Source: Shigella phage ESh25. From it: a stretch of DNA of 64,000 bases. The notes below the pieces were generated by a model. That model worked only from the letters and a program-made list of their open reading frames with translations. It had not been told where the DNA came from and did no database searches. The stretch lies in the sequence record ON528735, one strand, 5' to 3'. The translations under genes and the position numbers were made by a program. Below, in pieces: positions 28,121-54,739 of this stretch. Positions within the stretch are counted from its first letter, which is position 1. Each line of letters opens with the position of its first letter.

Positions 28121-28171
28121 AAATTTTCCACTTAGTTAATAGTTGGTGACTCGTCCGTGAGTCAAATTATA

Positions 28172-33356: not shown

Positions 33357-33386
33357 ATAGTATCACACTACTACCCTGTTGTAAAC
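33357..33386 (-). promoter_or_regulatory. early promoter with inverted repeat
   Basis: GTTTAC, 18 nt, TACTAT; near-perfect 11-bp inverted repeat AGGGTAGTAGT/ACTATTACCCT spans spacer and -10. Confidence 0.5.
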
Positions 33387-34083: not shown

Positions 34084-34377
34084 TTATTGTTCAATCAGTC
34101 CCATGTAAAATTCTGCGTCTTCAGAATCCATGCCATCGCAATATTCATTAGCCATAAAGCGGGTAAGGTCTTCAAGAGGACCTTCAATGACAATAGAAAA
34201 ATTGCAATAATTGGGATCATCATGAATACTTGTGATACTAAGTTCAGGATAACGATTACGAATAATCTCTTCAATATATTCAAAATCAACGATGTCAATA
34301 TCAACTTTAGCCATATTATTTTCCTCTTTGATCATCAGCAGTATTGCCGATAGTTGTATAGTACCATGGAAGGACAA
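34084..34377 (-). CDS. hypothetical protein (97 aa), frd.3 position
   Basis: AGAGGAAAA Shine-Dalgarno; promoter upstream. Confidence 0.55.
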
Positions 34378-34387
34378 GGATGTAAAC
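34358..34387 (-). promoter_or_regulatory. early promoter; member of a repeated cassette family
   Basis: GTTTAC, 18 nt, TACTAT; the 38 bp at 34382-34420 is 37/38 identical to 51068-51106. Confidence 0.5.
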
Positions 34388-34408
34388 AGTTTTGTGAAAA
34401 AATTTTTG

Positions 34409-34437
34409 AAATAAAAAAGGGGACCTCTAGGGTCCCC
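34409..34437 (-). terminator. rho-independent terminator after gene 32
   Basis: Stem GGGGACC/GGTCCCC followed on minus strand by TTTTTTATTT. Confidence 0.7.
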
Positions 34438-34459
34438 AATTAATTAGTAATATAATCTA

Positions 34460-35365
34460 TTAAAGGTCATTCAAAAGGTCATCTAGGTCCGTGTCATCAG
34501 CACTAGATGAACTGCCAGAGCTTGAGCTCATAAAATCATCTTCAGTTTTTGTATTGAAGTCATCAACATTGAATGCATCCAAATCATCAGCAACTTTATC
34601 AGCTTTCTTAGCAGCAGTTGCAGCGGCACCGCCCATCACAGCAGTTCCCATAACTTGACCGAATTTAGTGCTCAGTTCTTCAAACGATTTGAATTTATCT
34701 TTAGAAGTCATTTCAGAAAGGTCAACCATTTGTTCGAACAGTTCTTTCTGGAAAGATTCATCGTCAATGTTTGGAATCGCAGATTGATTCAGGAATTTAG
34801 ATTCGTCGTAGTTACTAAATCCAGAAACCTGTTTAACTTTCAGTACAAAGTTAGCACCTTCCCACGGACAAGTTACATCAACCGGAGTTTCACCCATTTC
34901 AACATCAACCGCAATCATTGCATTGATTTTATCCCAGATTTTCTTACCGAAACGGTATTTAAATACTTTACCTTCATTTTCTGGAGCAGCTGGGTCTTTT
35001 ACAACAAGAATGTTAGCCCAGTAAGAAGTTTTGCGTTTAACAAGACTGTACTCTTTATTGTCAGTGTTGTACAGATCATTTTTACTGATGTACTGACATA
35101 CTGGGCAAGAATCGTAATCACCGTGGGTAGATGAACAGTTTTCAATATACCATTTACCATTTTTCTTGAAACCGTGATTTACAAGAATTGCGAATGGTGC
35201 TTGTTCATCATTTTTAGACGGAAGAAAACGAATTACTGCTTGACCGTTACCCGCATTGTCGAGTTTCAGTTTCCACTCGCCTTTATCTTCAGAAGAAAAA
35301 CCTTTATTGCCATTCAGTTTAGCCATTTGTGCAGCGAGTTCAGCAGTAGATTTACGTTTAAACAT
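34460..35365 (-). CDS. 32: single-stranded DNA-binding protein gp32
   Basis: 301 aa, same as T4 gp32; zinc-site [10 protein letters not shown]; acidic Ser/Asp-rich C-terminal tail. Confidence 0.95.
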
Positions 35366-35456
35366 TTTTATTTCCTTTTTAATTTAATTAACAGTTGGTG
35401 CTATGACGATGTATGACCTCATAGCTGGTCAGTGAGATAATTATAATCTATTTATA
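35366..35456 (-). promoter_or_regulatory. gene 32 leader: late promoter TATAAATA (35449-35456) plus A/U-rich translational operator
   Basis: TATAAATAG on minus strand; leader TTAAATTAAAAAGGAAATAAAAATG consistent with the T4 gp32 autoregulatory operator. Confidence 0.5.
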
Positions 35457-35464
35457 ATAAGCAA

Positions 35465-36118
35465 TTAATACTTACAAGATTTCACAGTTTCAATGAAAAC
35501 ACTTTTAGCTTTCTGTGAATCAATATTTAAAATTTTTCTATAAGCCTTTAATTTTATAGAATAATTATTCCAGACTAAATTATCAGTCTGTTCATCATGT
35601 TTATCAATTATATTTAAAAACGAATCAAGCAAGATAAACGTCTCAAACGAAATTATATTTGATTGAAGTAGTTTAAAAATATAACTTGATTGAACTTTTG
35701 GATTATACTCAAAAATTTCTTTAAAAGCAGAAACTTCAACTTTTTTACTAAAATAATAAATGTTGCGAATATCTTCTTCAAACTTAAATTTAATTTGCTT
35801 TAAACGTCCGATATATTCACGATAAAACACAAGTGCATCAGCGTCAGAGATGTCACCAATCCAAGCATCTTGGTTGGCAACCAAATTGCTTATAAAGATT
35901 AAAGCAAGTTCCTTTAATTTATATTTTTCTGATAACTTCTGGAAAAAATACTTATCCCTTCGCTTTTGATAAGCGGCATCAGACACCCGCATGCACCAAT
36001 TATACTTAATAACATCATACTTTCCATTCATATGTTGTTTTATCATTAAGTATAATTTATAAACTGATTTACCATCAATGTATCTTTCACCACCAGCAGG
36101 CATGCGGAGTTTAATCAT
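35465..36118 (-). CDS. 59: gp59 helicase loader
   Basis: 217 aa, same as T4 gp59; no segG-like ORF between 32 and 59. Confidence 0.8.
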   Translation of the reverse strand: MIKLRMPAGGERYIDGKSVYKLYLMIKQHMNGKYDVIKYNWCMRVSDAAYQKRRDKYFFQKLSEKYKLKELALIFISNLVANQDAWIGDISDADALVFYREYIGRLKQIKFKFEEDIRNIYYFSKKVEVSAFKEIFEYNPKVQSSYIFKLLQSNIISFETFILLDSFLNIIDKHDEQTDNLVWNNYSIKLKAYRKILNIDSQKAKSVFIETVKSCKY

Positions 36119-36453
36119 AGTAGAAAATCTAATGTATTAGTTTTTTCACAACGAACAACAGAAGGACGTAAAAGATTTTCGTCAATAGCTTCTGACTGAA
36201 TTTTTTCAATTATACCCAAAGGAATAAATTTAGCAAATTGAGTTTCAGGAATAGAATTTTCTTCTAAGAATGCTGTTGTAGCTTCGAGATAACTCATTCC
36301 AAACTCTTCTACCATTTTTTCAATAATAAATCCATTTTCTTGGCGGTCAAGAAGCTTTGCTATTTCATCCTTTTCTTTCTTAATTGAAAGTTCTTTTTCT
36401 GAAAGACCGGTCTCATCGACCGGACGAATATCATTTAGAGAAAACTGTGTCAT
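36115..36453 (-). CDS. 33: gp33 late-transcription co-activator
   Basis: 112 aa from MTQFSL (same as T4 gp33). Confidence 0.8.
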   Translation of the reverse strand: MTQFSLNDIRPVDETGLSEKELSIKKEKDEIAKLLDRQENGFIIEKMVEEFGMSYLEATTAFLEENSIPETQFAKFIPLGIIEKIQSEAIDENLLRPSVVRCEKTNTLDFLL

Positions 36454-36700
36454 AAAGTTCAACTACCTCTTCAGTTTCAGCTTCAAACACATCACGGTTA
36501 TCTTTATGATACAAAGCTAATAGACGATTAAACATCTTACCATCAACGCCAAGTTCATCTTTGGCACGAATTCGAATATCTTTAATCAGTTCATTATAAC
36601 CGGAAATTTTCAGTTTATGGTCAGATGCTTCTTTAATAAATTTAGCCAAGTCTTCGCCATGGATAGCTTCATCAAATTCAACCATTTCTTTTTTAGCCAT
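36431..36700 (-). CDS. dsbA: DsbA double-stranded DNA-binding protein
   Basis: 89 aa, same as T4 DsbA; between rnh and 33. Confidence 0.75.
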   Translation of the reverse strand: MAKKEMVEFDEAIHGEDLAKFIKEASDHKLKISGYNELIKDIRIRAKDELGVDGKMFNRLLALYHKDNRDVFEAETEEVVELYDTVFSK

Positions 36701-36708
36701 TATTCACC

Positions 36709-37626
36709 TCAAAATTCATTAATGCTATTAGTTAATTTAGAAAGACCTGCTTTTACAAAATATGAATAAATTTTGCCACGCGGTGGTAATTTATATGAAT
36801 TATAGTAATTCACAATGTTTGAAGCAATATTATCAGGAATATAATCAAAATCAATTAGAACTAAATTTTCTTTATAACGATTATATTCAGATTCTGTGAG
36901 AAGCACCTTAGCTTGCTCACGGTCATTAGCAATAGCTTCAACGATTGAAGTTTTCATTGAAGGAGTCCGTTCACCTTCAACTCTGGTAAACCAAAAGTCA
37001 GAACGTACTTTAACTGAAGCAACGTTATCCTTTTTGTCACCCTTAAGAATTTTAGTCATACAATCAATTTCAGCAGAACCGCTTTTAATTTTAACCCATT
37101 TCTTGTGCATCGGTGACCATTGCTTAACATTTGGATATTTGTGAAGTTGAGTAAAGTCACCATCCGACGAAATGATTAAAATCTTATGTCCTTCTAAAGA
37201 GAACTTTTTAACAAGAACAGCGATATGATCATCTGCTTCATACTTATCAATATCCATAACGATGTATGGCATATAAGCTTTCAATTCATCTATAACTTTA
37301 TGACTGGATTCAAAATAACCTTCCCAGTCCCAAGTAGATTCTTCTCGTGCTTTTCCACGGTTTTTCTTATAATAATAAGCGAAATCACGACGCCAGTATC
37401 CAGATTTCGCGTTATCAATACACAGTACAATTTTAGTGTATCCAAGCGTTTTTGCTTTTTTGACATTAAACTTAATTGAGTTCAATATCAAATGACGAAC
37501 CATTGATAAATTAATTTTTTCTTTATCTGGGAAGTTTACCAGAGCAGTTGAAAGAGCAATTTGACTAAAGTCAATAAAGCAAATTCCTTCTTTGTAATCT
37601 TCATCCAGCATCATTTCTAAATCCAT
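36709..37626 (-). CDS. rnh: RNase H (5'-3' exonuclease / flap endonuclease)
   Basis: 305 aa from MDLEMM (same as T4 RNase H). Confidence 0.9.
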   Translation of the reverse strand: MDLEMMLDEDYKEGICFIDFSQIALSTALVNFPDKEKINLSMVRHLILNSIKFNVKKAKTLGYTKIVLCIDNAKSGYWRRDFAYYYKKNRGKAREESTWDWEGYFESSHKVIDELKAYMPYIVMDIDKYEADDHIAVLVKKFSLEGHKILIISSDGDFTQLHKYPNVKQWSPMHKKWVKIKSGSAEIDCMTKILKGDKKDNVASVKVRSDFWFTRVEGERTPSMKTSIVEAIANDREQAKVLLTESEYNRYKENLVLIDFDYIPDNIASNIVNYYNSYKLPPRGKIYSYFVKAGLSKLTNSINEF

Positions 37627-37655
37627 ATGAACCTCGTTCAATTAGTGAGATTTCT

Positions 37656-37685
37656 ATTATATACTATCTAAATCTTAAAGTAAAC
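37656..37685 (-). promoter_or_regulatory. early promoter for rnh
   Basis: GTTTAC, 18 nt, TATAAT on minus strand. Confidence 0.55.
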
Positions 37686-37688
37686 AGG

Positions 37689-37696
37689 TATAAATA
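37689..37696 (+). promoter_or_regulatory. late promoter TATAAATA for gene 34
   Basis: TATAAATA 34 nt before the gene 34 ATG; divergent from the rnh early promoter. Confidence 0.6.
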
Positions 37697-37730
37697 CTTA
37701 TTATTGAAAACACAATAGGAGCCCGGGAGA

Positions 37731-40700
37731 ATGGCCGAGATTAAAAGAAAGTTCAGAGCAGAAGATGGTCTGGACGCAGGTGGCGATAAAATAATCAACG
37801 TAGCTTTAGCTGATCGTGCCGTAGGAACTGACGGTGTTAACGTTGATTACTTAATTCAAGAAAACACAGTTCAACAATACGATCCAACTCGTGGATATTT
37901 AAAAGATTTTGTAATCATTTATAATAATCGTTTTTGGGCAGCAACGGATAATATTCCAAAACCTGCTGGAAATTTTAATAGAATTCGTTGGAAAGCATTA
38001 CGTACTGATGCCGTATATACAACTGTATCATCTGGACCATATCAATTAAAATCCGGAGAAGCAATTTCAGTAGATACATCAGTTGGTAATGACATTGAGT
38101 TTACTTTACCACCTTCTCCGCTCGATGGAGAAACAGTAATAATTCAAGATATCGGTGGAAAACCTGGTATAAATCAGGTTAAAATAAGTTCTTCAAATCA
38201 GAGCATTGTTAATTTTAGAGGTGAACAAGTACGTTCAGTTTTAATGACTCATCCAAAGTCACAGATGATATTCATTTTTAATAATCGTTTGTGGCAAATG
38301 TATGTTGCTGATTATAGCAGAGAAGCTGCAATTGTTACTCCATCGACTGCATATCAAGCACAATCTAATGATTTTATCGTGCGTAGATTTACTTCCGCAG
38401 CGCCGATTAATATTAAACTTCCGAGATTTGCTAATCATGGCGATATTATTAATTTCGTTGATTTAGATAAATTAAATCCACTTTATCATACAATTGTCAC
38501 GACATATGATGAAACAACTTCAGTACAAGAAGTTGGAACTCATTCCATTGAAGGCCGTACATCGATTGACGGTTTCTTGATGTTTGATGATAGTGAAAAA
38601 TTATGGAGATTGTTTGACGGGGATAGTAAAGCACGTTTACACATTATAACGACTAATTCAAACATTCGTCCAAATGAAGAAGTTATGGTATTTGGTGCGA
38701 ATAATGGAACAACTCAAACGATTGAACTTCAGCTTCCAACTAATATTTCTGTTGGTGATACTGTTAAAATTTCCATGAATTACATGAGAAAAGGACAAAC
38801 AGTTAAAATCAAAGCTGCCGGTGAAGATAAAATTGCTTCTTCAGTTCAATTGCTGCAATTCCCAAAACGCTCAGAATATCCACCTGAAGCTGAATGGGTG
38901 ACTGTTCAAGAATTAGTTTTTAACGGTGAAACTAATTATGTTCCAGTTTTACAGCTTGCTTATATTGAAGATTCTGACGGAAAATACTGGGTAGTACAAC
39001 AAAACGTTCCAACAGTTGAAAGAGTCGATTCTTTAAATAATTCTACTAGAGCAAGATTAGGCGTAATTGCTTTAGCTACACAAGCCCAAGCTAACGTCGA
39101 TTTAGAAAATTCTCCACAAAAAGAATTAGCAATTACTCCAGAAACATTAGCTAACCGTACTGCTACAGAAACTCGTAGAGGTATCGCAAGAATAGCAACT
39201 ACTGCTCAAGTAAATCAGAACACTACATTCTCTTTTGCTGATGACCTTATCATCACTCCTAAAAAGCTGAATGAAAGAACTGCTACAGAAACTCGTAGAG
39301 GTGTTGCTGAAATTGCTACGCAGCAGGAAACTAATACAGGTATCGATGATACTACAATCATCACTCCTAAAAAGCTTCAAGCTCGTCAAGGTTCTGAATC
39401 ATTATCAGGTATTGTAACTTTTGTATCTACCGCAGGAGCTACCCCAGCTTCTAGTCGTGAATTAAATGGTACAAATGTTTACAATAAAAACACTAATAAT
39501 TTAGTTGTTTCGCCTAAAGCACTGGATCAGTATAAAGCTACTCCAACACAGCAAGGTGCAGTAATTTTAGCAGTTGAAAGTGAAGTAATTGCTGGACAAA
39601 GCCAAGAAGGATGGGCAAATGCGGTTGTAACGCCAGAAACGTTACATAAAAAGACATCAACTGATGGAAGAATTGGTTTAATTGAAATTGCTACGCAAAG
39701 TGAAGTTAATACAGGAACTGATTATACTCGCGCAGTCACTCCTAAAACTTTAAATGACCGTAGAGCAACTGAAAGTTTAAGTGGTATAGCTGAAATTGCT
39801 ACACAAGTTGAATTCGACGCAGGCGTCGACGATACTCGTATCTCTACACCATTAAAAATTAAAACTAGATTTAATAGTACTGATCGTACTTCTGTTGTTG
39901 CTCTATCTGGATTAGTTGAATCAGGAACTCTCTGGGACCATTATACCCTTAATATTCTTGAAGCAAATGAGACACAACGTGGTACACTTCGTGTAGCTAC
40001 ACAAGTTGAAGCTGCTGCAGGAAAATTAGATAATGTTTTAATAACTCCTAAAAAGCTTTTAGGTACTAAATCTACCGAATCGCAAGAAGGTGTTATTAAA
40101 GTTGCAACTCAGTCTGAAACCGTGACTGGAACGTCAGCAAATACTGCTGTATCTCCAAAAAATTTAAAATGGATTGTGCAGAGTGAACCTACTTGGGCAG
40201 CTACTACTGCGATAAGAGGTTTTGTTAAAACCTCATCTGGTTCAATTACGTTCGTTGGTAATGATACAGCTGGTTCTACGCAGGACTTAGAACTATATGA
40301 GAAAAATGGTTATGCAGTATCACCATATGAATTAAACCGTGTATTAGCAAATTATTTGCCGTTAAAAGCAAAAGCTGCTGACGCAAATTTATTAGATGGT
40401 CTAGATTCATCTCAGTTCATTCGTAGGGATATTGCCCAGACAGTTAATGGTTCACTAACCTTAACCAAACAAACGAACCTGAGTGCCCCTCTTGTATCAT
40501 CTAGTACTGCTACGTTTGGTGGATCAGTTTCAGCAAATAGTACACTAACTATTTCTAATACTGGAACGGCAACTCGTCTGATTTTTGAAAAAGGACCTCA
40601 AACTGGGACGAACCCAGCTCAAACGATGACAGTCAGAGTGTGGGGAAATCAATTTAGCGGGGAATCAGACACAACACGTTCTACCGTATTTGAAGTTAGT

Positions 40701-41600: not shown

Positions 41601-41608
41601 GAGGTATT

Positions 41609-42724: not shown

Positions 42725-42729
42725 ACTGA

Positions 42730-42763
42730 GGGAGCCTTCGGGTTCCCTTTTTCTTTATAAATA
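42730..42763 (+). promoter_or_regulatory. hairpin terminator after gene 35 followed by late promoter TATAAATA (42756-42763) for genes 36-37
   Basis: Imperfect GGGAGCC-UUCG-GGUUCCC stem plus T-run, then TATAAATA 24 nt before the gene 36 ATG. Confidence 0.5.
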
Positions 42764-42786
42764 ATATTAAAATAAAGGGGCATATA

Positions 42787-43437: not shown

Positions 43438-43445
43438 GAGGACTT

Positions 43446-46412
43446 ATGGCTACTTTAAAACAAATACAATTTAAAAGAAGCAAAACTGCAGGTCAACGTC
43501 CTGCTGCTTCAGTATTAGCCGAAGGTGAATTGGCTATAAACTTAAAAGATAAAACAATTTTCACAAAAGATGACTCAGGTAGTGTTATAGAATTAGGTTT
43601 AAAATATGGAGGAACAATTGATGGTTCTTTAACTGTTAATGGAAATATAATTGGAAATTTAACAGGTAACGCTGCAACTGCAACGAAATTAAAAACAGCA
43701 CGAAAAATTAATGGTATATCCTTTGATGGGTCAAAGGATATCACGCTAACTCCATCTGACATAAATGTCAATAGCACAACATTTATAAAAAATAATGGCG
43801 AATTACCTGTTGATGCTAATTTAGATGAGTATGGGCCTGTTGAAGAATATCTTGGTGTTTGGTCGAAAGCAACTTCAACCAACGCTCAACCAGCAAATAA
43901 ATTTCCAGAAGAAAATGCTGTAGGTGTGCTAGAAGTATTTGTGGCCGGTCAATTTGCTGGTACTCAGAGATATACAACTAGATACGGAAATGTTTATATT
44001 CGTTCCTTGACTGCTACATGGAACGGAGTAAATGGTCCGTGGAGTGTGTGGCGAAATATTCAATCCGGTACTCGTCCACTGTCAACAACAATTGATCTTA
44101 ATGATCTAGGAGGCGCTGAACACTTTGGTTTGTGGCGAAATAGTTCAAATTCTATTGCTACCTTTGACAGAAATTTCCCAGAAGAGGGGTCGTCAGCTCA
44201 AGGACTTTTAGAAGTATATGAAGGTGGAAACTATTCTCGCACACAGAGATATACGACCAGATTTGGTGTTGTTTATACTCGCTGTCTTGCTGCTGCGTGG
44301 GATGCTTCTGCGCCTAAATGGGGACCGTGGCAACAAGTCGGTAATGTCACACCAGCGACTTTTTATGATGGAGATCTGAATGATTTTAAAACTCCTGGGT
44401 TATATAATATTTTAGGCACTGATGCCGTTATTAACTGTCCTACCGGTGAAGGTTTGCCGACTGTTATTGTTGGTTTGCTGGAAGTTAAACAGCGTGCTTC
44501 TGGCGGTGCTATTTTCCAAAAATTTACTACTGCCGGAACGGGTGCAACTACCCGCGATCGTATTTTTGAGCGCGCATATACCGGCGGTGTTTGGGGTGCA
44601 TGGAACGAAGTATATACATCTTATTCTCTGCCAATTACTTTGGGTATGGGTGGTATTAAAGCTCAATTAGCGGAGTTAGATTGGCAAACCTTTGATTTTG
44701 TCCCTGGTAGTATGTTTAGCGTTCCTTTGAATAAAATAAAGAACATGCCAGCAAATATGGATTGGGGGACGATTGATGGAAACTTGGTTATGTTTTCTGT
44801 CGGTCCTAGCGAACATACTAGCACAGGGCGCACTGTTCAGGTTTGGCGCGGTACTGTATCCCAGACAAACTACCGTTATTTTGTCGTTCGTGTATTCGGT
44901 AATTCAGGAAATAGAACTTGCACAGTTCGTCGTGTTGTTCTTGAAGATGGTCGCCACAAATGGACAGCGCAGCAAGATTTTAATGGCGCAGTTAACTTCG
45001 GTGCTGCAACCACGTTTAAATCAACTACAACTTTTAATACAGAAGTTAAATTTCGCGCATTGAATGCGTTCCGCCTGTATGGCGGAAAATTTGGTACATT
45101 TTTCCGTAATGATGGAGAGAGTCTTTATATTCTTTCCACCGACGAAGATGATCAAGATGGAAACTTTAATACAAATAGACCTTTCCGTTATGAATTGAGA
45201 ACTGGTGATGTTACTTTAGGTGGTACTAGTGGTGCTAACGTTTTAAAATTAAAACGTGATTCTCTCACCGCATTTTTTGGTGGTGATATTAATATAAAAG
45301 GCTTGATGACTTTTGACGCCGGACGTTTAGGATCACGAGATTATTTTAAATTTAACCATTGGGGTGATAGTAATAATGCGCGTGATAACATTATTCAGTT
45401 AGAAGACAGCAAAGGAGTTCATTTTTCTACTGAACGTACTTTAGCGACTGGTGCAATTAAAACTAAATTCTTTGGTGAAGTTGAATCCGATGGTAGATTG
45501 ATTATTAAACGTCCGGGTGATTCTATTGTATTATCAGCACCTGCTAGTAATTCTTTGCATATTCGTGGTGACGTAGACGGTACTAATAACTGGTATATTG
45601 GTAAGGGTGGTGATGATAATGGATTAGCGTTCTATAGTTATGCTACTAATGCTGGTGTATACATTACAAACGCAGGGGATATCACGCTAAGTCCAAAAGG
45701 CGTCGAAATGGCTCATGTTAATAACGTTCGATTATATGTTCATGGTGAACGTTGGACCGCTAGTCAACCAGGTGATTGGGGCAACCAATGGCGAGTAGAA
45801 GCGCCAATATTCGTCGATCATGGTTATGTTGGATCAGATAGCTATTATCCAATTATTAAAGGAAGAAGTGTAGTCACCAATCAAGGGTTTGTAACTGCCG
45901 TCGATCTTGGTATTCGTCGTATCCCTAATAATTGGGGACAAGCAATTATTCGTGTTGGATCTGCGGAGGCTTCTCCTGATGCTGGTCATCCTAACGCGAT
46001 ATTCGAGTTCCACTATGATGGGTTCTTTTACGCACCAGGAAATGGAAATTTTAATGATGTGTATATTCGTTCCGATGGTCGTCTTAAGATTAATAAAAAA
46101 GAGCTAGAAAACGGAGCGGTTGAAAAAGTTTGCCGACTGAAAGTTTATACTTACGATAAAGTTAAGTCTATTAAAGACCGTAGTGTTATTAAACATGAAG
46201 TTGGTATTATTGCGCAGGATCTTGAAAAGGAATTGCCGGAAGCTGTATCTAAAGTTGAAGTTGATGGATCTGATGTTTTGACAATTTCTAACTCTGCTGT
46301 GAATGCTCTTTTAATTAAGGCCATTCAGGAAATGAGCGAAGAAATTAAAGAATTGAAAACACCTTTCTTCACTAAAATTGCTCGTAAAATTAGCAATTAT
46401 TTTAAATTCTAA
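43446..46412 (+). CDS. 37: long tail fibre distal subunit gp37, T2/T6-type with C-terminal intramolecular-chaperone-like domain
   Basis: 988 aa; T4-like N-terminus [13 protein letters not shown]; C-terminus carries [15 protein letters not shown]...[11 protein letters not shown], which resembles the auto-cleaving chaperone domain of phage fibres; no His-rich tip. Confidence 0.9.
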
Positions 46413-46417
46413 CAACA

Positions 46418-46430
46418 AGGGGCTTTGCCC
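46418..46430 (+). other. GC hairpin GGGGC-UUU-GCCCC between genes 37 and 38, just upstream of the gene 38 Shine-Dalgarno
   Basis: Stem-loop followed by TTTGGAGAAAATTATG. Confidence 0.4.
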
Positions 46431-46444
46431 CTTTGGAGAAAATT

Positions 46445-47245
46445 ATGGCAGTAGTTGGTGTTCCTGGTTGGATTGGAAGTTCATCCGTAAATGAAACAGG
46501 ACAACGATGGATGAGTCAAGCGGCTGGTCAATTAAGATTGGGTATTCCTTGCTGGATGAGTCAATTTGCAGGTCGCTCAAGAGAAATTATTCACACGCTT
46601 GGAGCAGACCATAACTTCAATGGTCAATGGTTCCGAGATAGATGTTTTGAGGCAGGTAGTGCACCTATAGTGTTTAATATCACAGGAAATTTGGTATCAT
46701 ATTCTAGAGATGTTCCTTTATTCTTCATGTATGGAGATACACCAAATGAATATGTTCAGTTGAATATTAGCGGTGGAGCTCATATGTGGGGCAGAGGTGG
46801 ACAAGGTGGATGGACTCATTCTGGTGGAGATGGTAATGGTCAACAGGGTGGACATTGTATTCAAAATGACATTGGTGGTCGGTTAAGAATTAATAATGGT
46901 GGAGTAATTTGTGGCGGAGGAGGCGGTGGCGGCGGTATCGCTTATCGTCCTCACTCTGGTGCAAACTGGCAAGATATTGGTGGCGGTGGAGGAAGACCGT
47001 TTGGCCCAGGAGGTGGCGGTGGTTATTCAGGAGGTGCTGCTTCTTATGATGGCCCAGGAGGTGGTTATAATTATGGTATTGCTCACTCTGGTCAAGGTGG
47101 CGATGCTGGAGGAAATGGACAAAATGCCTGGCATGATGGTGGTAAAGTTCTAAAAGTTGGCGCTGGCGGGGCGGCAGGTTATGCTGTAATAGGGTCTGCT
47201 CCAACATGGCAAAATGTTGGAATAATATATGGTCCAAGAGTATAA
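46445..47245 (+). CDS. 38: gp38 receptor-recognising adhesin (T2-type, glycine-rich motifs flanking variable segments)
   Basis: 266 aa from MAVVGVPGW; polyglycine runs GGGGGGGG, GGGGG, GGGGG separated by short variable segments. Confidence 0.85.
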
Positions 47246-47276
47246 TTTTGAATAAATACCCTTAAAAGGAGGGTCT

Positions 47277-47933: not shown

Positions 47934-48206
47934 TTATTTGTTTGTATACATCTCTAGATATCGATATACACCCTCAAAACCCTCGTTGAATTCGTCGATG
48001 AGGGTTTTCTTATCTTCTTGAGTTAATTCAGAAACAATTTTACGGAATGAATTCTGATTTAACTTTCTACCTTCATGCGTTACTCCAATCTCATTCAGAA
48101 ATGCAATAAAATTAGCACGATTCTCAACAATATCTTCTCTGGAAAATTTAATCAAAATAGACGCAACAGTAATAATTTCACGAACTGTATCAATATTTTT
48201 ATTCAT
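47934..48206 (-). CDS. asiA: AsiA anti-sigma70 factor
   Basis: 90 aa, same as T4 AsiA; recalled N-terminus MNKNIDTVREII. Confidence 0.9.
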   Translation of the reverse strand: MNKNIDTVREIITVASILIKFSREDIVENRANFIAFLNEIGVTHEGRKLNQNSFRKIVSELTQEDKKTLIDEFNEGFEGVYRYLEMYTNK

Positions 48207-48218
48207 TAACTATACCAC

Positions 48219-48371
48219 TCAATTAGTTGACTTTGCTATAATATCATCAGACGTTTGATTTGTAAACTGGTCTGTGGTATTTTCTTCAAAAATTTTTTCT
48301 ACGAATTCCTTGAACGACTTACGTTCCTGAGCTACATTATGCTCGATTACTTTTTCAAGATTATGACTCAT
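48219..48371 (-). CDS. possible small acidic ORF (50 aa) coupled to the arn stop (ATGA overlap)
   Basis: Found by eye; overlaps the asiA promoter, so may not be translated. Confidence 0.3.
   Translation of the reverse strand: MSHNLEKVIEHNVAQERKSFKEFVEKIFEENTTDQFTNQTSDDIIAKSTN
48238..48267 (-). promoter_or_regulatory. early promoter for asiA
   Basis: GTTTAC, 18 nt, TATTAT about 30 nt before the asiA ATG. Confidence 0.55.
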
Positions 48372-48646
48372 TCGAAATAATCTTCAATTTCATAATCAAG
48401 GACATAAATCATTATAGTTTTTAATACATCATCAATACTTTTTCCTGGAGCTGGAATTACGTAAAAATATCCTGCTTTTGAGTTATCTTTATAAGTTCCA
48501 ATCAAGAAATCATTATTCCCAAGATGTAGTTCTTCAACTAATTCATTAACAATTGAGTGATATAAATTTGGTAGAAACTTGTATAGCTTTTCTAGAATAT
48601 CAATTTTGATTGTGTATTGAACCACAGATTGAGAATCAATAATCAT
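48368..48646 (-). CDS. arn: Arn anti-restriction (McrBC inhibitor) protein
   Basis: 92 aa, same as T4 Arn; position adjacent to asiA. Confidence 0.7.
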   Translation of the reverse strand: MIIDSQSVVQYTIKIDILEKLYKFLPNLYHSIVNELVEELHLGNNDFLIGTYKDNSKAGYFYVIPAPGKSIDDVLKTIMIYVLDYEIEDYFE

Positions 48647-48729
48647 AGACCTTCCCCTTATGTTTCTGTTTGCGATTAGATTCTTTAAACGCTTTCTTCT
48701 TATCCTTATGGACAGAAGCTTTATTAAAA

Positions 48730-48948
48730 TTATGTTTTGCGACTAAATTGTTCATAGTGCTGAATTACCTCTCTTAAACAATTGCATGTGAATGAAAACT
48801 TTTTAGCTACACCACATTCAAATATATGTTCTCTTAAATCACGTGTGTCAGTATATCCCATCTCAACGATAAAATGTCTTATTAAATTTTTATCTTTATC
48901 ATTAAGAGAATTAAAATAATCAGATTTTGAATTAATTTCCCTGGCCAA
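48730..48948 (-). CDS. hypothetical protein (72 aa), Cys-containing
   Basis: ORF in the arn-motA array. Confidence 0.5.
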   Translation of the reverse strand: MAREINSKSDYFNSLNDKDKNLIRHFIVEMGYTDTRDLREHIFECGVAKKFSFTCNCLREVIQHYEQFSRKT

Positions 48949-49228
48949 ATTGAATCACCTTCAGTTGACGTTTTAATTCTTTTATCATTTCTTCGTTCAT
49001 CGCAATATAAAGATCGCGTAAAGCAGGTTTTAACATTCCATTTACTGGAGAACTAAATGGACACACATAATCTTTTCCTACGAGCTTTTTGGCGAATTCC
49101 ATATTACAGAACTTAAATCCCGGCTCATTGGTATAAATTCCCCAATTAGTTGACATCATTTTATTAGCATATTCCAGTGCCTGGATTTGATTCATAATTC
49201 CATCGATTTGAAACTTTTTAATATTCAT
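48932..49228 (-). CDS. hypothetical protein (98 aa)
   Basis: ORF in the arn-motA array. Confidence 0.5.
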   Translation of the reverse strand: MNIKKFQIDGIMNQIQALEYANKMMSTNWGIYTNEPGFKFCNMEFAKKLVGKDYVCPFSSPVNGMLKPALRDLYIAMNEEMIKELKRQLKVIQFGQGN

Positions 49229-49689
49229 TAGTAAAGGTCCTCAGAGTAAAGTTCTTTTTCACTACCACCACGTTCAATACGTACTTGTCCAGCGTAAGTT
49301 GCAATAATCATTGCTTCTTCGCGAGTCCAATAATTACTATATTGGTCAATAAACCCTTGGTCATCATCACAAACTTGTTGAGTAACTAATTGAGGTTTAA
49401 CTACATCTAAAACTTCTGCCATATCTTTAGAATAATGACGAGCACCTGGAATAATAAGAGTTCGTCCATCTTTTAATTTAAAACGGTTGGCTGCACAGAC
49501 AATTCGTCGTTGATACTTTTGGTTTTCATCCCAATATGCAGTCTGCCAACAGATTTCAGGAACTTCATCTAAAACATTTTGTTCTGTATATTCACCACCA
49601 TAAGAAGCTAATTTAGCAGCCAGACTTTCCGGAGTCTCACGAGATAAAGCTTTATCTAACAGAGCTAAACGTTCTTTAAAAGTTTTCAT
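49228..49689 (-). CDS. hypothetical protein (153 aa)
   Basis: ORF in the arn-motA array; ATGA-type overlaps. Confidence 0.55.
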
Positions 49690-50015
49690 TTAAACCATCC
49701 TTTAATACGCTGCCACAAAGTTTTCTGTTGAGCTTTGTTAACACCAATTGAACGAATAACCGGTTGAGATTCCTGGAATTCTTTATAATCGGCAAGGTAA
49801 ATTTCGTAAGCTGCATCTGTAAAGGAACTTATCGCTGCCATAAAATTATTGCGAATACCTACTGGAGCATCTTTACTTTCACGAATAATCATGTATTTAC
49901 CAGTCTTAATCTTTACAATAGTTCCAAGATAAGCTCCATGGTACCAAATATCCCAACCCTCTTGAGTAGGTTCTGCACAACGACGAAGTTCATTGACAAT
50001 TTCTAACTTGTTCAT
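49686..50015 (-). CDS. hypothetical protein (109 aa)
   Basis: ORF in the arn-motA array. Confidence 0.55.
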
Positions 50016-50025
50016 TATTTATTCC

Positions 50026-50661
50026 TCACAGTTCAGATGCTACAGTGATTACAGCTTCAATGATTTCTGCCGAGCGTTTAATGTCAAGATACACATTACC
50101 GTTTTTAGCGATTTTACATGACATTCCGATATCAGTAAATTTCTGAATATGATGTTCCATCATTTTGTATCCAAAAATTCGCATATTTCCATTGTTGTTA
50201 ATTTCAAAATTGCGAATTCCATGTGTACGTTTTTCTAAAATGGCAAGATAATTACTACGATAAGTTTCAACCTTTTTAAGAACAAATCCATTTTCATCTA
50301 GCAGTTTTAACATGAGATCTTTATCTTCTTCCATATCGGAAGTAATCTCGCGAGCTTTACGAGTAGCACGTTTTTTCAGAAGTTCTGGAGCATTTTCTTG
50401 CGCATATAAAGTTGCTGCGTTTGAAATAATATCTTGCGCTTCGCCTGTGATGATTAATCCATCACCTGATTTCTCCACCAGGCCTTTTTTAATCAATACC
50501 CCAATATTACTATTAACTACTGCGTTACCTAAATCTGGATTCACCTCACGAACTTCTGCAGCTGTAATGAAATCTTTCTTAGCAATAGTAATTAAAATCG
50601 CAGCAGTTTTTTCATTCAGAACATCGTTAGAAGCTTTGATGATGTAAGTTACTTTAGACAT
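50026..50661 (-). CDS. motA: MotA middle-transcription activator
   Basis: 211 aa, same as T4 MotA; between 52 and the arn cluster. Confidence 0.85.
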   Translation of the reverse strand: MSKVTYIIKASNDVLNEKTAAILITIAKKDFITAAEVREVNPDLGNAVVNSNIGVLIKKGLVEKSGDGLIITGEAQDIISNAATLYAQENAPELLKKRATRKAREITSDMEEDKDLMLKLLDENGFVLKKVETYRSNYLAILEKRTHGIRNFEINNNGNMRIFGYKMMEHHIQKFTDIGMSCKIAKNGNVYLDIKRSAEIIEAVITVASEL

Positions 50662-50698
50662 TTTAATCTCCGTTTCAGTTCATTTATTTGATAGGTCT

Positions 50699-50727
50699 AT
50701 AGTATCATGTTTAAAGCAGAAGTAAAC
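50699..50727 (-). promoter_or_regulatory. early promoter for motA
   Basis: GTTTAC, 17 nt, TACTAT; leader shares the 23-nt CTATCAAATAAATGAACTGAAAC with the neighbouring cassette at 51010-51035. Confidence 0.55.
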
Positions 50728-50766
50728 ACTTTTTTGCACTCTTTTTCAAGAGCTCTAATAAAGTAC

Positions 50767-50994
50767 TTACTTAATGTTCAGATTACGAACTTCGATTTCG
50801 TCTTCATGGGCAAAATCAAACTGTTTGAATTCTGTGTCACCTTTAAATTTAAAAATCATTGTGAAGAAAGTCAGAACACCAGGTTTTTCTTCACGAACTC
50901 CACAGATATTATATTCAATACCATCTACAACCAGTTTGTTAGCAGTCAGAGCATTTTTAGCTTTAACGATTTCGTTTTCGATTTTAAATTTCAT
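50767..50994 (-). CDS. hypothetical protein (75 aa)
   Basis: GGAGA Shine-Dalgarno; own promoter. Confidence 0.55.
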   Translation of the reverse strand: MKFKIENEIVKAKNALTANKLVVDGIEYNICGVREEKPGVLTFFTMIFKFKGDTEFKQFDFAHEDEIEVRNLNIK

Positions 50995-51043
50995 TTTTTG
51001 TATCTCCGGGTTGTTTGTTTCAGTTCATTTATTTGATAGTTGT

Positions 51044-51073
51044 ATAGTACCACAGTATGCTTTGGTTGTAAAC
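51044..51073 (-). promoter_or_regulatory. early promoter; repeated cassette (near-identical to 34358-34420)
   Basis: GTTTAC, 18 nt, TACTAT with conserved upstream AAAATTTTTTCACAAAAC. Confidence 0.5.
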
Positions 51074-51095
51074 CGTTTTGTGAAAAAATTTTTGA

Positions 51096-51124
51096 AATAA
51101 AAAAGGGAGAGCCGAGGCTCTCCC
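51096..51124 (-). terminator. rho-independent terminator
   Basis: Stem GGGAGAGCC/GGCTCTCCC followed on minus strand by TTTTTTATTT. Confidence 0.7.
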
Positions 51125-51129
51125 TAAAA

Positions 51130-51279
51130 TTACTGCATGACTGTGATAACCGTCATGATAACACGTTGAATTCCGAACGCAAGAAGACCTCCTGCTACGG
51201 CAGGAACAACACCTAAACCCGCCAGTAAAATGCCACCAGATACTAATGCAGCGCTTGTGATACCAATGAATGGACTCAT
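51130..51279 (-). CDS. small hydrophobic Gly/Ala-rich membrane peptide (49 aa)
   Basis: Found by eye; ATGA overlap with the gene 52 stop; single predicted transmembrane segment. Confidence 0.45.
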   Translation of the reverse strand: MSPFIGITSAALVSGGILLAGLGVVPAVAGGLLAFGIQRVIMTVITVMQ

Positions 51280-52604
51280 TTGATTTCCTCTAAATCTTTG
51301 GTGTATTCTGTAACTACATCAGTAGTTTTCCAATATTCGTTTTCTTCTTTTTTGGCTTTAGCTTCTTCAGCAAGTTTCTTTGCTTCGTCGGAAGTCATAT
51401 GAAAAATATTCATTCCGACTAGTTTATCAACATAAGAAGAATACATCTCAATTTTAGAAAGTTCTTCGGTCAGTTCTTTACGAGTTTTACCCTGCACAAC
51501 AATTTCACCTGAAATTACTTTCTTAATGAAATGTGCCTTGGCAAAAGCTAAACGAAATGCTAATTCAGTTTCTTTGATTTTGTTATCAATTCGTTTTTGG
51601 ACATAAGTTTTACGAACTTCAACGAAGTCTTTGATTAAATCAACTACATTATCGTAAACTTGTAGTTTTCCTTTCTCATTAATAACCGTAATATTCTGAG
51701 AACGACGCTCAATCAACCCGAAGTCTTTCATAATTTTTGCATGGCGTTCTTCTTCGTTATCGCTCAAAGAGTATTCTTTGCGGAATTTAACTTTGAAGCC
51801 AAAGCCATGCTCACCACAAGCATCATCCCATGTAATGAAGCCTTTATCTTCAAGCGGGTCTAAGATTTTACTCACATAAGTTTCACGATCATACTTATAT
51901 GGAATCTCAGTGATATGCATTTGAGTTCGTGAAGTAAACTTATATGTTCCACGAATTTCATATTGCCCATCAATTTCAACGACTTCACCACGAAATTCTG
52001 GGAATTCTACCTTCGGTTTAGTTACTTTCTTTCCTTGAAGAGCTTGCAGTACAGCTTTCTTGACAGAAGAAACACTATGAGGAAGAATGTAAGTTGCATA
52101 ACCAGTTGCAATACCGGAAACGCCATTAAGAAGAACAGTAGGAATAATAGGCAAATAGAAAGCAGGCGGAATGTGTTCTTTATCTTGATGTACCGGAGCA
52201 TATTCAGTATCTTTATATACGTTATAGAAATTTTTACTTACACGAGCAAAAATATAACGACTTGCTGCTGCCTTTTGGACAGTACGAGAACCAAAGTTTC
52301 CTTGACCGTCTAACAGAGGAAAGTTATTATTCCAAGTGTTAGCCATCAAAGCACCTGCGTCTTGTGCAGAGTTTTCGCCATGGTGATATCCAAGGTCCGC
52401 TACACCACCTGCAATAGAAGCGAGTTTGTGAAACTTATCTTTATTTCCTCGTGCCAAATCAAGAGCTCGAGCAATAACAAATCGTTGAACTGGCTTAAAT
52501 CCATCAATCATATTTGGGATAGCACGATTTTCAACCGTGTACATAGCATAAGCCAATGCTTCATTATCAATGATACTTTTTAAATCGCGATTATTCAGTT
52601 GCAT
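51276..52604 (-). CDS. 52: DNA topoisomerase II medium subunit gp52 (GyrA-like)
   Basis: 442 aa, same as T4 gp52. Confidence 0.9.
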   Translation of the reverse strand: MQLNNRDLKSIIDNEALAYAMYTVENRAIPNMIDGFKPVQRFVIARALDLARGNKDKFHKLASIAGGVADLGYHHGENSAQDAGALMANTWNNNFPLLDGQGNFGSRTVQKAAASRYIFARVSKNFYNVYKDTEYAPVHQDKEHIPPAFYLPIIPTVLLNGVSGIATGYATYILPHSVSSVKKAVLQALQGKKVTKPKVEFPEFRGEVVEIDGQYEIRGTYKFTSRTQMHITEIPYKYDRETYVSKILDPLEDKGFITWDDACGEHGFGFKVKFRKEYSLSDNEEERHAKIMKDFGLIERRSQNITVINEKGKLQVYDNVVDLIKDFVEVRKTYVQKRIDNKIKETELAFRLAFAKAHFIKKVISGEIVVQGKTRKELTEELSKIEMYSSYVDKLVGMNIFHMTSDEAKKLAEEAKAKKEENEYWKTTDVVTEYTKDLEEIK

Positions 52605-52741
52605 AAATTTACCATACTAGTGAATGTAGTGCCATAATAACATCAGAAATGAAAAGCACGACTTGAATTAATCCGAACATTATTCCGTAATATAACGCTA
52701 TCAATAAAATAGCAAGGGCTAATGAATAGCCCAAGATTTTC

Positions 52742-52897
52742 TTAATCATTAGATAACAACACAAATGTTAAATATGCACACATACCTTGGGCTAAAGCCT
52801 GCGAAAACACACTGCTGGCATCGATACAGATAGTTAAAACACATGCTACTATCCAACAAATAAATGAAATAACTCCTAATAATTTTGCGATATTCAT
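52742..52897 (-). CDS. ac: small membrane protein (51 aa), Ac-like
   Basis: Found by eye; 51 aa hydrophobic; GAGGAAAAT Shine-Dalgarno; T4 order 52-ac-stp-ndd. Confidence 0.5.
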   Translation of the reverse strand: MNIAKLLGVISFICWIVACVLTICIDASSVFSQALAQGMCAYLTFVLLSND

Positions 52898-52904
52898 ATT
52901 TTCC

Positions 52905-52985
52905 TCACTGGCGTCCGAAGACGCCTTTAGTTTTAAGATTATTACGATAGAACTGCATCACGTGTTCGTTGTGGAAATTACTCAT
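52905..52985 (-). CDS. stp: Stp peptide (26 aa), activator of the host PrrC anticodon nuclease
   Basis: Translation [26 protein letters not shown] matches recalled T4 Stp; 1-nt overlap with the ndd stop. Confidence 0.7.
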
Positions 52986-53443
52986 TAATATGCCTGCAAA
53001 ACGAATTTAAAATTATCAGCCAACATACGGTTCATTTCTTCAAGTGTTTGATACTCAGAATGATGATTACGAGTAAACGCTAAAGCTAACTGTCCTTTTC
53101 CAAATCCCGTCGTCAGAGGTTTCATCTTAGAAGCAGGCAGATAAAATACTGTGTATGGAACATTGTTATTTGCAATAGTACGTGCAAGCTGAGACCGACG
53201 TTGACGAATATGACTTAGAACTGCACTGAATCCTTGCTTAGAACGCTGATTACCTACATAAAATCGTGCAGACACACATGGATTACTAAATGGACGACCA
53301 TCTAATTTACTTACTAAAAAGTAAAATCCAGGTTTAGATAAAATGTCTTTATGCGGAGTTCCCAAAAACCATTCACCGCCCTTGATTGTGCCAATAACAG
53401 TAGCGCCTGCATTATTCAGATCAGTAACAGTCATGTATTTCAT
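52985..53443 (-). CDS. ndd: Ndd nucleoid disruption protein
   Basis: 152 aa from [13 protein letters not shown] (T4 Ndd about 151 aa); track start is an upstream extension. Confidence 0.85.
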
Positions 53444-53503
53444 ATTAATTTCCTCTAAATTATTTTCTACTCCAAGGCCGCATGAATACACACGGCCATT
53501 AAA

Positions 53504-53719
53504 TTACTCGTCGCAGTCGACGCTCAATTCCCAGAATTCTTCTACGGTATAAGTTTCAGTATCATTTTCAATACAGAAACGTTCATTACTGTTATTTGCT
53601 AAAGTAGCGTTAACTGTCATTTTCTCGCTGGTGCTCTTAAGAGGTGAAATACGAATTAACTGATCACCACTATTCAAGCAAAAAATTTCGCCAACTTTTA
53701 CATCTTTAAAAATTTTCAT
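53504..53719 (-). CDS. hypothetical protein (71 aa)
   Basis: ORF in the ndd-denB small-ORF array. Confidence 0.5.
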   Translation of the reverse strand: MKIFKDVKVGEIFCLNSGDQLIRISPLKSTSEKMTVNATLANNSNERFCIENDTETYTVEEFWELSVDCDE

Positions 53720-53834
53720 AATTCACCTCAGGGAGTATAAAACCCAAATGCAGTTGTTGACCATCCCATCCAATATGGAAAATTTGCACCAATGTAAAAC
53801 ATAAGAATATAAAACCAACCGCTCAGCAAATTCA

Positions 53835-54032
53835 TCATTTTACACCATTCCAAATTGTTTCAACTACGGATTTTAAACCATTTTGATGAATGTCCATTCC
53901 GACTACCGCCATCAAATAGATTCCAACTACAACTGAACCTAAGGCAAAAATCAGCATGAAAATGAATAAAGCCGGAAAAATATTATCGAAAAACCATTCA
54001 ATAAATGTAAAAGCACTGCGTTTACGCTTCAT
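53835..54032 (-). CDS. small membrane protein (65 aa from MKRKRS)
   Basis: GAGGAAAATATG start; one hydrophobic helix. Confidence 0.5.
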   Translation of the reverse strand: MKRKRSAFTFIEWFFDNIFPALFIFMLIFALGSVVVGIYLMAVVGMDIHQNGLKSVVETIWNGVK

Positions 54033-54039
54033 ATTTTCC

Positions 54040-54153
54040 TCACATAAATCCAAAATAAACGTTTAATACATCAATCATTAAAACGATTGGGAATATACTC
54101 AAAACTATTAGTATTATAACTACATTCCATATAGCTTTAATAATCTTTTTCAT
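54040..54153 (-). CDS. small hydrophobic peptide (37 aa)
   Basis: Track N-terminal extension reads through the promoter at 54182-54211; Shine-Dalgarno GGAGGAAC. Confidence 0.4.
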   Translation of the reverse strand: MKKIIKAIWNVVIILIVLSIFPIVLMIDVLNVYFGFM

Positions 54154-54181
54154 TTTCTGTTCCTCCGTAGTTGATAGGGTA

Positions 54182-54211
54182 ATAGTACCACGGAGGAACA
54201 GTCTTGTAAAC
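54182..54211 (-). promoter_or_regulatory. early promoter with inverted repeat that includes the downstream Shine-Dalgarno
   Basis: GTTTAC, 18 nt, TACTAT; inverted repeat TTCCTCCGT/ACGGAGGAA. Confidence 0.5.
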
Positions 54212-54395
54212 CACTTTTTAAAAATATTCGTAATAAATGTGAATACCAACTACTACCGCTGAAACTTGCGCAACCCACCACGCACAAGCAATAAGTACAG
54301 AATTCAAAATTTTCATAATAACCTCATTACAAAAGTAAATGTTAAACAAATTACTGGAATACTAATTAACCAAACAAAACACCACCACAGTGAAC

Positions 54396-54659
54396 TCATA
54401 GTTCAATCTCAGCGATTTTCATTTCATTACTATTAATAGCCGCTTTAAGACTATCTGAAAGAATTACATTCCAGTGGTCATTCATATGACCATTAACTAA
54501 GCGTGTAATTTCTTCAGGAGTTGAAAAATAAGGCTGATCAGACTCCCAGTGCGATAATCCTAAGCGAGTATAAATCATGCCTTCATCATCGCTAGAATAT
54601 TCAACTGACACAAACTCATCAGTTATTTTATGTTTAGCGTAATAAAATTTAAATTTCAT
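54396..54659 (-). CDS. hypothetical protein (87 aa from MKFKFYYAK)
   Basis: Track extension reads through the promoter; GGAGAATAAAATG start. Confidence 0.5.
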   Translation of the reverse strand: MKFKFYYAKHKITDEFVSVEYSSDDEGMIYTRLGLSHWESDQPYFSTPEEITRLVNGHMNDHWNVILSDSLKAAINSNEMKIAEIEL

Positions 54660-54693
54660 TTTATTCTCCAAATCCGTATCAGTTGATAGTTGT

Positions 54694-54723
54694 ATAGTAC
54701 CACGGTCCTTGTGGTATGTAAAC
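54694..54723 (-). promoter_or_regulatory. early promoter; cassette family member
   Basis: GTTTAC, 18 nt, TACTAT; shares GGTACTATACAACTATC with the 34358 and 51044 cassettes. Confidence 0.5.
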
Positions 54724-54739
54724 TGTTTTGTGAAATTTT

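Follow-up and report, generated by a model that had tools for sequence, protein, structure and literature searches.

A subfamily of T4-type early-promoter cassettes in Shigella phage ESh25, probably kept alike and mosaic by recombination

The primary references on the early promoters of bacteriophage T4 are those of Liebig and Rueger in 1989, Wilkens and Rueger in 1996, and Miller et al. in 2003. These promoters combine UP, -35, TGn and -10 elements, with additional consensus regions apparent in alignments (Hinton 2010); in the numbering of Nolan (2006), which we follow here, the -35 element GTTTAC occupies positions -36 to -31 and the -10 element positions -12 to -7. Composite cassettes of an early promoter and a stem-loop (PeSLs), which end in a Shine-Dalgarno sequence and an ATG, were described in phages phi1/RB49, where promoter activity, terminator activity and mini-circles were shown and a role as recombination linkers was proposed (Arbiol 2010, PMC2839356). 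A later study extended them to T4/PST, giving the consensus TTTACW-N17-TAYWAT and counting the ndd region among its examples (Comeau 2014, PMC4122927), and the published definition of PeSLs admits variable stem-loop positions and degraded copies (PMC2839356, PMC4122927). As reported in Arbiol 2010 (PMC2839356), the same idea had been put forward by Repoila in 1994 for the internal-protein loci of T-even phages. Here we analyse a stretch of 64,000 nucleotides (nt) of Shigella phage ESh25 (record ON528735; the window), in which an earlier reading of the bare sequence had pointed out a family of early-promoter cassettes with at least three sites, designated here A, B and C. We consider it highly probable that these are T4-type early promoters of one lineage, two of the three fused to terminators as in PeSLs, and that they are kept alike and mosaic by recombination.

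The window is Tequatrovirus (T4-like) DNA, 98-99.7% identical to sequenced phages, and 700-900 genomes of this genus were matched. The three sites have in common the exact pattern TTTCACAAAAC-N-GTTTAC-N18(..TGG)-TACTAT-ACAACTATC, on the minus strand; all motifs are written here 5' to 3' on that strand, the plus strand carrying the reverse complement. They are correctly oriented with respect to the surrounding genes, all of which are likewise on the minus strand: site A follows gene 32 and is directly 5' of frd.3; site B, in the order gene 52, motA.1, a 75-amino-acid (aa) open reading frame (ORF) and motA, is 5' of this ORF and then of motA; and site C is 5' of an 87-aa ORF downstream of denB. 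Their parts are as follows.

34419-34437, minus strand: site A, intrinsic terminator hairpin after gene 32, GGGGACCCTAGAGGTCCCC and then TTTTTTATTT, found in the terminator scan and orthologous to the T4 hairpin 3' of gene 32.
34388-34418, minus strand: site A, T-run and UP-like block TTTTTTATTTCAAAAATTTTTTCACAAAACT, about -67 to -37, within a 38/39 stretch shared with site B; A/T-rich, with A-44 and A-40 as in the T4 consensus.
34358-34387, minus strand: site A, core promoter, with -35 GTTTAC at 34382-34387, an 18-nt spacer ending in TGG at 34364-34381, and -10 TACTAT at 34358-34363.
34349-34357, minus strand: site A, downstream box ACAACTATC, discriminator (-6 to -1) and +1 to +3, with the predicted start A at 34351.
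34084-34348, minus strand: site A, remainder of the leader (to 34315, with Shine-Dalgarno GAGGA) and frd.3 ORF (34084-34314, 76 aa).
51104-51125, minus strand: site B, intrinsic terminator hairpin after motA.1, AGGGAGAGCCTCGGCTCTCCCT and then TTTTTTATTTC, an annotated terminator in phages JB75 and Lutter.
51035-51103, minus strand: site B, promoter, with UP-like block, -35 at 51068-51073, spacer, -10 at 51044-51049, box at 51035-51043 and predicted +1 at 51037.
50767-51034, minus strand: site B, remainder of the leader (to 50995, with a GGAG Shine-Dalgarno) and the inserted 75-aa ORF (50767-50994).
54685-54745, minus strand: site C, promoter after denB, with AAAAAATTTCACAAAACA, -35 at 54718-54723, spacer, -10 at 54694-54699, box at 54685-54693 and predicted +1 at 54687.
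54396-54684, minus strand: site C, remainder of the leader (AACTGATACGGATTTGGAGAATAAA), RegB consensus GGAGAATAAAA, and the 87-aa ORF (54396-54659) in place of T4 ndd.6/ndd.5.

The shared motif and a 23-nt leader repeat, both claimed in the sequence-only reading, proved to be exact matches. The 17-nt GGTACTATACAACTATC is found without mismatches at 34349-34365 (A), 51035-51051 (B) and 54685-54701 (C), and has relatives with three mismatches at 50690-50706 (site D) and 62641-62657 (site E); with up to three mismatches, it gives five matches versus 0.22 expected in shuffles, and none of 100 shuffles reached five. TTTCACAAAACNGTTTAC is also exact at sites A, B and C. By itself, the 9-mer ACAACTATC occurs three times versus 0.71 expected, a number reached by 4 of 100 shuffles, so that its significance derives from its fixed place beside the -10 element and not from its count. 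The 23-nt repeat, CTATCAAATAAATGAACTGAAAC, is exact at 50672-50694 and at 51017-51039 (expected number, 0.00), and the latter copy overlaps the box of site B. In an unbiased repeat search, too, these promoter families (D1, D5, D8 and D10) came out among the highest-ranking direct repeats.

Farther upstream, 34382-34420 and 51068-51106, which hold the terminator T-run and the UP-like block, are identical in 38 of 39 nt; their near-identity had been noticed correctly, although the figure given, 37/38, was not accurate. Similarly, starting site A at 34358 had captured the motif but left the downstream box, at 34349-34357, just outside. The third site carries the exact motif, but of the upstream block it has only AAAAAATTTCACAAAAC in common with A and B, and it has no stem-loop, because its upstream part overlaps the end and stop codon of denB. 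A GC-rich hairpin, predicted to be an intrinsic terminator, thus adjoins the promoter at A and B, and not at C. The leaders of the cassettes measure 28-43 nt and end in a GGAG- or GAGGA-type Shine-Dalgarno sequence followed by ATG, and the spacers of the three copies differ (8-9/18).

Comparison with T4 identifies the sites as early promoters. The same cassettes are present in T4 at the orthologous frd.3 (146.85 kb), motA (163.65 kb) and ndd.6 (167.06 kb) loci. Site B is the ortholog of the motA early promoter of T4, with 36/37, 25/25 and 15/15 identical positions across -74 to +3, and a promoter is annotated at its locus in the record of phage Lutter; site C is identical to the ndd.6 promoter of T4 across -74 to +3. 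The leader of site A is orthologous to that of T4 frd.3 (24/27 identical), and the ORF behind it matches Pfam PF05798 (Phage_FRD3, E = 6e-38). In the T4 reference genome, as assembled by us, a scan for GTTTAC-N17/18-TAnnnT yielded 41 minus-strand sites; about 8 of these 41 early-type sites belong to the subfamily defined by a TACTAT -10 plus ACAACTATC, with e.8, nrdC.10 and imm.1 as further members and nrdC.8 and mobD.5 as partial ones.

The consensus features also agree with those of T4, and the sequence-only reading was right in seeing early-promoter cassettes with an UP-like element. The -35 GTTTAC, the 18-nt spacer and a TAnnnT -10 element are exact at A, B and C, and (A/G)TGG stands directly before TACTAT at all three, where a promoter scan flags the TG of an extended -10 element. 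The UP-like AAAAATTTTTTCACAAAAC spans about -56 to -38, and A-44 (0.48 bit) and A-40 (0.98 bit) were the most informative positions in an early-promoter profile that we recomputed from the 33 T4 promoters outside the subfamily, which are independent of it. Likewise, the positions of the three sites fit the published features of T4 early promoters, namely A-richness at -40 to -44, a stretch rich in G and T ahead of -12, and T-12, A-11 and T-7. From orthology and consensus we infer that the three sites would be active promoters with the +1 positions given above. The identity among copies exceeds the -35 and -10 hexamers and hence what sigma70 recognition needs, as had been noted. A TCACA at -46 to -42 was also considered as a CRP half-site, but inspection by eye showed no TGTGA partner at the distance that such a site requires, and the idea was dropped.

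The copies of this subfamily are mosaic. Compared with that of T4 frd.3, the frd.3 cassette of the window is identical in 36 of 37 upstream positions and in 15 of 15 from -12 to +3, but in only 8 of 18 spacer positions, while its spacer matches that of the non-orthologous e.8 promoter of T4 in 17 of 18; within T4, the spacers of frd.3 and nrdC.10 are the same (18/18). Scanning IMG/VR for the exact pattern retrieved 21 copies in about 7 genomes, with no more than 5 per genome, and spacer types recurred across loci. In relaxed scans, 18 distinct copies had both the upstream block and the box, 4 had the upstream block alone and 9 the box alone; because each also occurs singly, the two are separable. 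At the ndd.4 ortholog of one of the genomes examined (L040), ACAAC stands in place of the TACCC seen in both the window and T4. The extent of the similarity is variable as well: the identity of site A to other copies stops at +3, and several copies are identical through GGAGAATAAAATGAAA, with the Shine-Dalgarno sequence and the ATG included. Judging from these comparisons, identity beyond what the polymerase needs is best explained by common descent with patchy recombination among copies.

Cassettes at a given site also carry exchangeable cargo. After denB, orthologous loci contain either T4 ndd.6 or the 87-aa ORF, which are unrelated; a 300-aa or a 49-aa ORF is found at the nrdC.10 site, a 126-aa or a 78-aa ORF at the imm.1 site, and motA or the 75-aa ORF at the motA site. 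Pfam and PHROG searches of the cargo ORFs retrieved only Frd3 and families of unknown function, the 87-aa ORF belonging to phrog_2390 and the 75-aa ORF, without any Pfam match, to phrog_10955. Of these dispersed cassettes there are, then, about 8 in T4 and at most 5 exact ones per IMG/VR genome, and the three cargo families phrog_10955, phrog_2390 and Frd3 are all of unknown function.

A clear exchange is that of the 75-aa ORF, which is not in T4 and was found in about 130-170 of the matched records of T4-like phages. The insertion lies between site B and a further promoter:

50662-50727, minus strand: site D, second, diverged promoter, with -35 GTTTAC at 50722-50727, a 17-nt spacer, -10 TACTAT at 50699-50704 and the box variant AGACCTATC.

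Site D was apparently introduced along with the module of the 75-aa ORF. Sites D and B are 92% identical over 36 nt (repeat D8), and site D is followed by the second copy of the 23-nt repeat (50672-50694) and then by GGAGATTAAAATG of motA. Relative to T4, the module of the 75-aa ORF is an insertion of 345 bp with edges at 50707 and 51030; counted on the two promoter copies, these are positions -15 and +7. A 23-bp piece of the T4 sequence can be aligned to either side of the insertion. In Salmonella phage S16, a homolog with 62% identity lies between nrdC.11-like and nrdC.10-like genes, a position that in T4 is another site of this promoter subfamily, and there, too, a direct repeat made up of about 55 nt of promoter and leader stands on either side of it, the leader (CCAAATAAATGGTAAAAC...) resembling the 23-nt repeat of the window. 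The location in S16 and the flanking repeats indicate that a module composed of leader, ORF, promoter and leader moved between cassette sites. The spread of cassettes that the sequence-only reading had offered as one possibility is thus borne out, with spacers, boxes and leaders mosaic between loci and an ORF module inserted between duplicated promoter and leader copies. Simple integration or excision at motA by a single crossover was considered and ruled out, since the T4 and window motA leaders differ.

The promoters that flank the homolog in S16 (L028; 1380-1490 and 1725-1807) are nearly exact copies over about 55 nt of -10 and leader, a likeness that suggests lineage-specific homogenisation of neighbouring early promoters in a more distant genus.

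Across the whole comparison of the window with T4, 7 of 40 breakpoints fell within -75 to +60 of an early promoter versus 1.26 expected at random (P ~0.001), under a null model that includes no preference of insertions and deletions for gene boundaries. Clear cases of promoter-linked breakpoints lie at motA (-15 and +7), in the denB-ndd region (+33) and at 33.3-33.4 kb; the remaining differences between window and T4 are mostly introns and homing-endonuclease genes.

Several observations weigh against the reading of the sites as PeSL-type promoters that recombine with one another. The excess of breakpoints is not convincing against a roughly estimated null that places events at gene boundaries (about 5-6 of 14 ORF-scale events versus about 4 expected), and we place no weight on it. 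Since the motA leaders differ, the arrangement in T4 is no simple excision product, so that one must suppose a replacement with short homology on the right (GGAGATTA). Site C is without a stem-loop. Finally, the positions at which the three copies of the window agree cluster in the blocks where polymerase contacts are expected, while the spacers are unlike, a pattern that selection on function alone could give.

This last point is the basis of a different explanation, functional constraint alone, in which selection for maximal binding of the host polymerase, possibly modified by Alt, would have produced the likeness by convergence or stasis and without exchange. The identical blocks do coincide with UP, -35, TGn, -10 and discriminator; a Klebsiella phage has a similar CACAAAAGTTGTTTAC...TACTAT arrangement; and Alt-dependent stimulation involves several promoter regions (Hinton 2010). 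Nevertheless, we regard constraint alone as unlikely, given that spacers and leaders, which have no known polymerase contacts, are shared between non-orthologous sites (17/18 and 18/18) and yet 10 of 18 spacer positions differ between orthologs, that in several copies the identity extends over the Shine-Dalgarno sequence and the ATG, that an ORF is inserted between duplicated copies, and that the other 33 T4 early promoters work without the box. Indeed, from -6 to +3 those 33 promoters display only a weak a..c.tAt, with at most 0.56 bit per position, which indicates that the exact box characterises a single promoter lineage and is not generally required. In the numbering used here, the box ACAACT|ATC corresponds to the discriminator, -6 to -1, followed by +1 to +3, and six of its nine bases are upstream of the predicted start and therefore would not be in the RNA. 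This, together with its exact conservation in the subfamily only, speaks against the extra regulatory or RNA-processing signal that had been suspected in it.

As an RNA-level signal, the box would be a processing site, or a stability or translation element, at the 5' end of early transcripts. Positions +1 to +3 are transcribed, a conserved CTATCAAC runs past the box to +6 in many copies, and early leaders of T4 are known targets of RegB and RNase G/E, RegB/S1 processing sites having the consensus GG*AGRAYARAA. The leader of site C matches this motif perfectly (GGAGAATAAAA), the motA leader with one mismatch and that of the 75-aa ORF with three, and the frd.3 leader lacks it; however, the predicted RegB site sits at the Shine-Dalgarno sequence, 20-30 nt 3' of the box and not within it. 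Besides, we found no common or unusually stable fold in the three leaders and their longer read-through versions (z = -1.05, +1.67 and -1.89 versus shuffles), an Rfam gathering search of the whole 64-kb window gave 0 matches, and the similarity of frd.3 to other copies does not go beyond +3. We thus see no evidence for an additional signal in the box, and consider this explanation highly improbable. It is also very unlikely that the invariant blocks (about -59 to -37 and -16 to +8) form the site of a dedicated phage protein, such as an early-promoter shut-off factor or one that targets recombination, in which case the subfamily would be a class of early promoters with regulation of its own or with active mobilisation. 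The blocks exceed textbook polymerase contacts in length, the shut-off mechanism of early promoters is still unknown (Hinton 2010), and a recombination protein that binds stem-loops has been speculated on (Arbiol 2010, PMC2839356). Against this, each block is also found without the other, the sequence shows no dyad or other hint of a protein site, and a general shut-off factor cannot depend on blocks that only about 8 of 41 early-type promoters of T4 carry. Scarcely credible, in turn, is an autonomous mobile element, similar to a miniature inverted-repeat transposable element, an insertion sequence or an integron, moved by a dedicated transposase or integrase. It would account for several dispersed copies per genome (at most 5 exact) beside variable small ORFs, but terminal inverted repeats and target-site duplications are absent, homology edges vary from copy to copy, the repeats that flank the inserted ORF are promoter and leader copies of different sequence type, and the nearby ORFs examined contain no recombinase-like domain; the other mobile elements by which window and T4 differ are introns and homing-endonuclease genes, at unrelated sites.

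Recombination between copies of one promoter lineage remains for us the preferred explanation, and the cassettes might operate as follows. As PeSLs, A and B are ordered as terminator or stem-loop, UP-like A/T block, GTTTAC, TGn, TACTAT, start region, short A-rich leader, GGAG-type Shine-Dalgarno and ATG. The host sigma70 polymerase would fire from them right after infection, its alpha C-terminal domains contacting the A/T block, sigma region 4 the GTTTAC, and sigma regions 3 and 2 the TGn and TACTAT, respectively, whereas ACAACT|ATC would be a plain discriminator with the first transcribed bases. The upstream hairpin would insulate each small transcription unit. The copies would represent a single lineage, a TACTAT...CTATCAA clade, which homologous recombination or gene conversion between dispersed copies presumably keeps similar and mosaic, and their identical blocks could act as linkers for swapping spacers, leaders and small ORFs between loci and phages.

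Two other promoters of the window are related to the three sites or resemble them:

62609-62691, minus strand: site E, degraded family member, with -35 ATATAC, TGGTACTAT, box variant ATCAATATC and a T4 e.8-type leader.
54182-54211, minus strand: sister-type promoter at the ndd.4 site, TACTAT-TACCCTATCAAC, repeat D1, with a second copy at 33357-33386.

Site E precedes an 89-aa ORF (62339-62608, minus strand), beside an insertion that is specific to the window versus T4 (62400-62599), and its spacer (ATCAGTAGTTGAT) and its own leader (ATCAACTACTGAT) are exact reverse complements of each other.

The window also contains a second class of early promoters, with a long inverted repeat, at 54182-54211, 25270-25323 and 9946-9999, all on the minus strand. 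In this class the 5' arm lies in the spacer between -35 and -10, and the 3' arm just 3' of the -10 element or over the Shine-Dalgarno sequence, as in CTGTTCCTCCGTGGT / ACTACGGAGGAACAG at 54.19 kb; in read-through transcripts from upstream, the predicted hairpin would bury the Shine-Dalgarno sequence. T4 has the class with -10 elements at 73915, 65775, 65390, 62773, 57966 and 20588, and 12 of its 41 sites have an inverted repeat at p<=0.05 versus shuffles. No such long inverted repeat is present at sites A, B and C. Stem-loops overlapping the -10 element are among the PeSL subclasses of Arbiol 2010 (PMC2839356). The promoters at 9946-9999 and 25270-25323 lie 15 kb from each other and show 98% identity along 54 nt (GTTTACAAGTCCCTCGTGTTGTGTTATAGTA.TCTTACTGACATAACATGAGGA), and T4 has the same near-identical pair (-10 at 123069 and 136312), which constitutes another lineage kept near-identical.

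Other differences from T4 are found elsewhere in the window. At ~10250-14160 there is a tandem alt-like duplication, with repeat pairs 2094-2097 nt apart and of 70-97% identity, where T4 has only the remnants alt.-1 and alt.-2. The window is without the nrdB intron, the mobE region, the td intron, segG and the mobA/gene 60 insertion, which splits the topoisomerase large subunit of T4; the corresponding positions are 27444-27447, 28120-28176, 31305-31307, 35428-35464 and 59314-59379. The distal tail-fibre region at 43600-47252 (3' part of gene 37, and gene 38) has no DNA-level alignment to T4, its adhesin module having been replaced.

Among known systems, lambdoid morons and integron cassettes resemble the cassettes described here in that a lone gene enters a permissive site together with the signals for its own expression. 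However, morons are not thought to move via their regulatory sequences, and integrons rely on attC sites and an integrase, whereas here promoter and leader provide the homology and no dedicated recombinase is evident. The promoter motifs of the internal-protein genes, as far as Arbiol 2010 relates the work of Repoila 1994, are closer, because repeats of T4-type early promoters and weak stem-loops flank interchangeable small genes, although at other loci (ipI, ipII/ipIII). With PeSLs the cassettes share the terminator stem-loop, early promoter, Shine-Dalgarno sequence and ATG, their dispersal over plastic regions, where small ORFs of unknown function follow them, and, in some cases, a position next to insertions, deletions and replacements between close relatives, and the consensus TTTACW-N17-TAYWAT fits the window sites; they differ in that one of the three is without a stem-loop. 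Essentially nothing separates them from the early promoters of T4, with which they have in common an A-rich UP-like region, GTTTAC at -36 to -31, TGn, a TAnnnT -10 element and an early-strand placement upstream of early genes, and of which the three sites are direct orthologs with few or no differences from -74 to +3 save for the frd.3 spacer, which is another than that of T4; what was recognised in the window is, nonetheless, one sequence subfamily and not the whole class. The feature is therefore already known, since both the extended early consensus of T4 and the linker role have been published, and it follows that a reader with the sequence alone can recover the early-promoter/PeSL architecture of T4. 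As far as could be seen, the insertion of the 75-aa ORF at motA, and its alternative location at the nrdC.10 site in S16, is a new example and not a new principle, adding one clean case of promoter-linked gene shuffling to those of the PeSLs.

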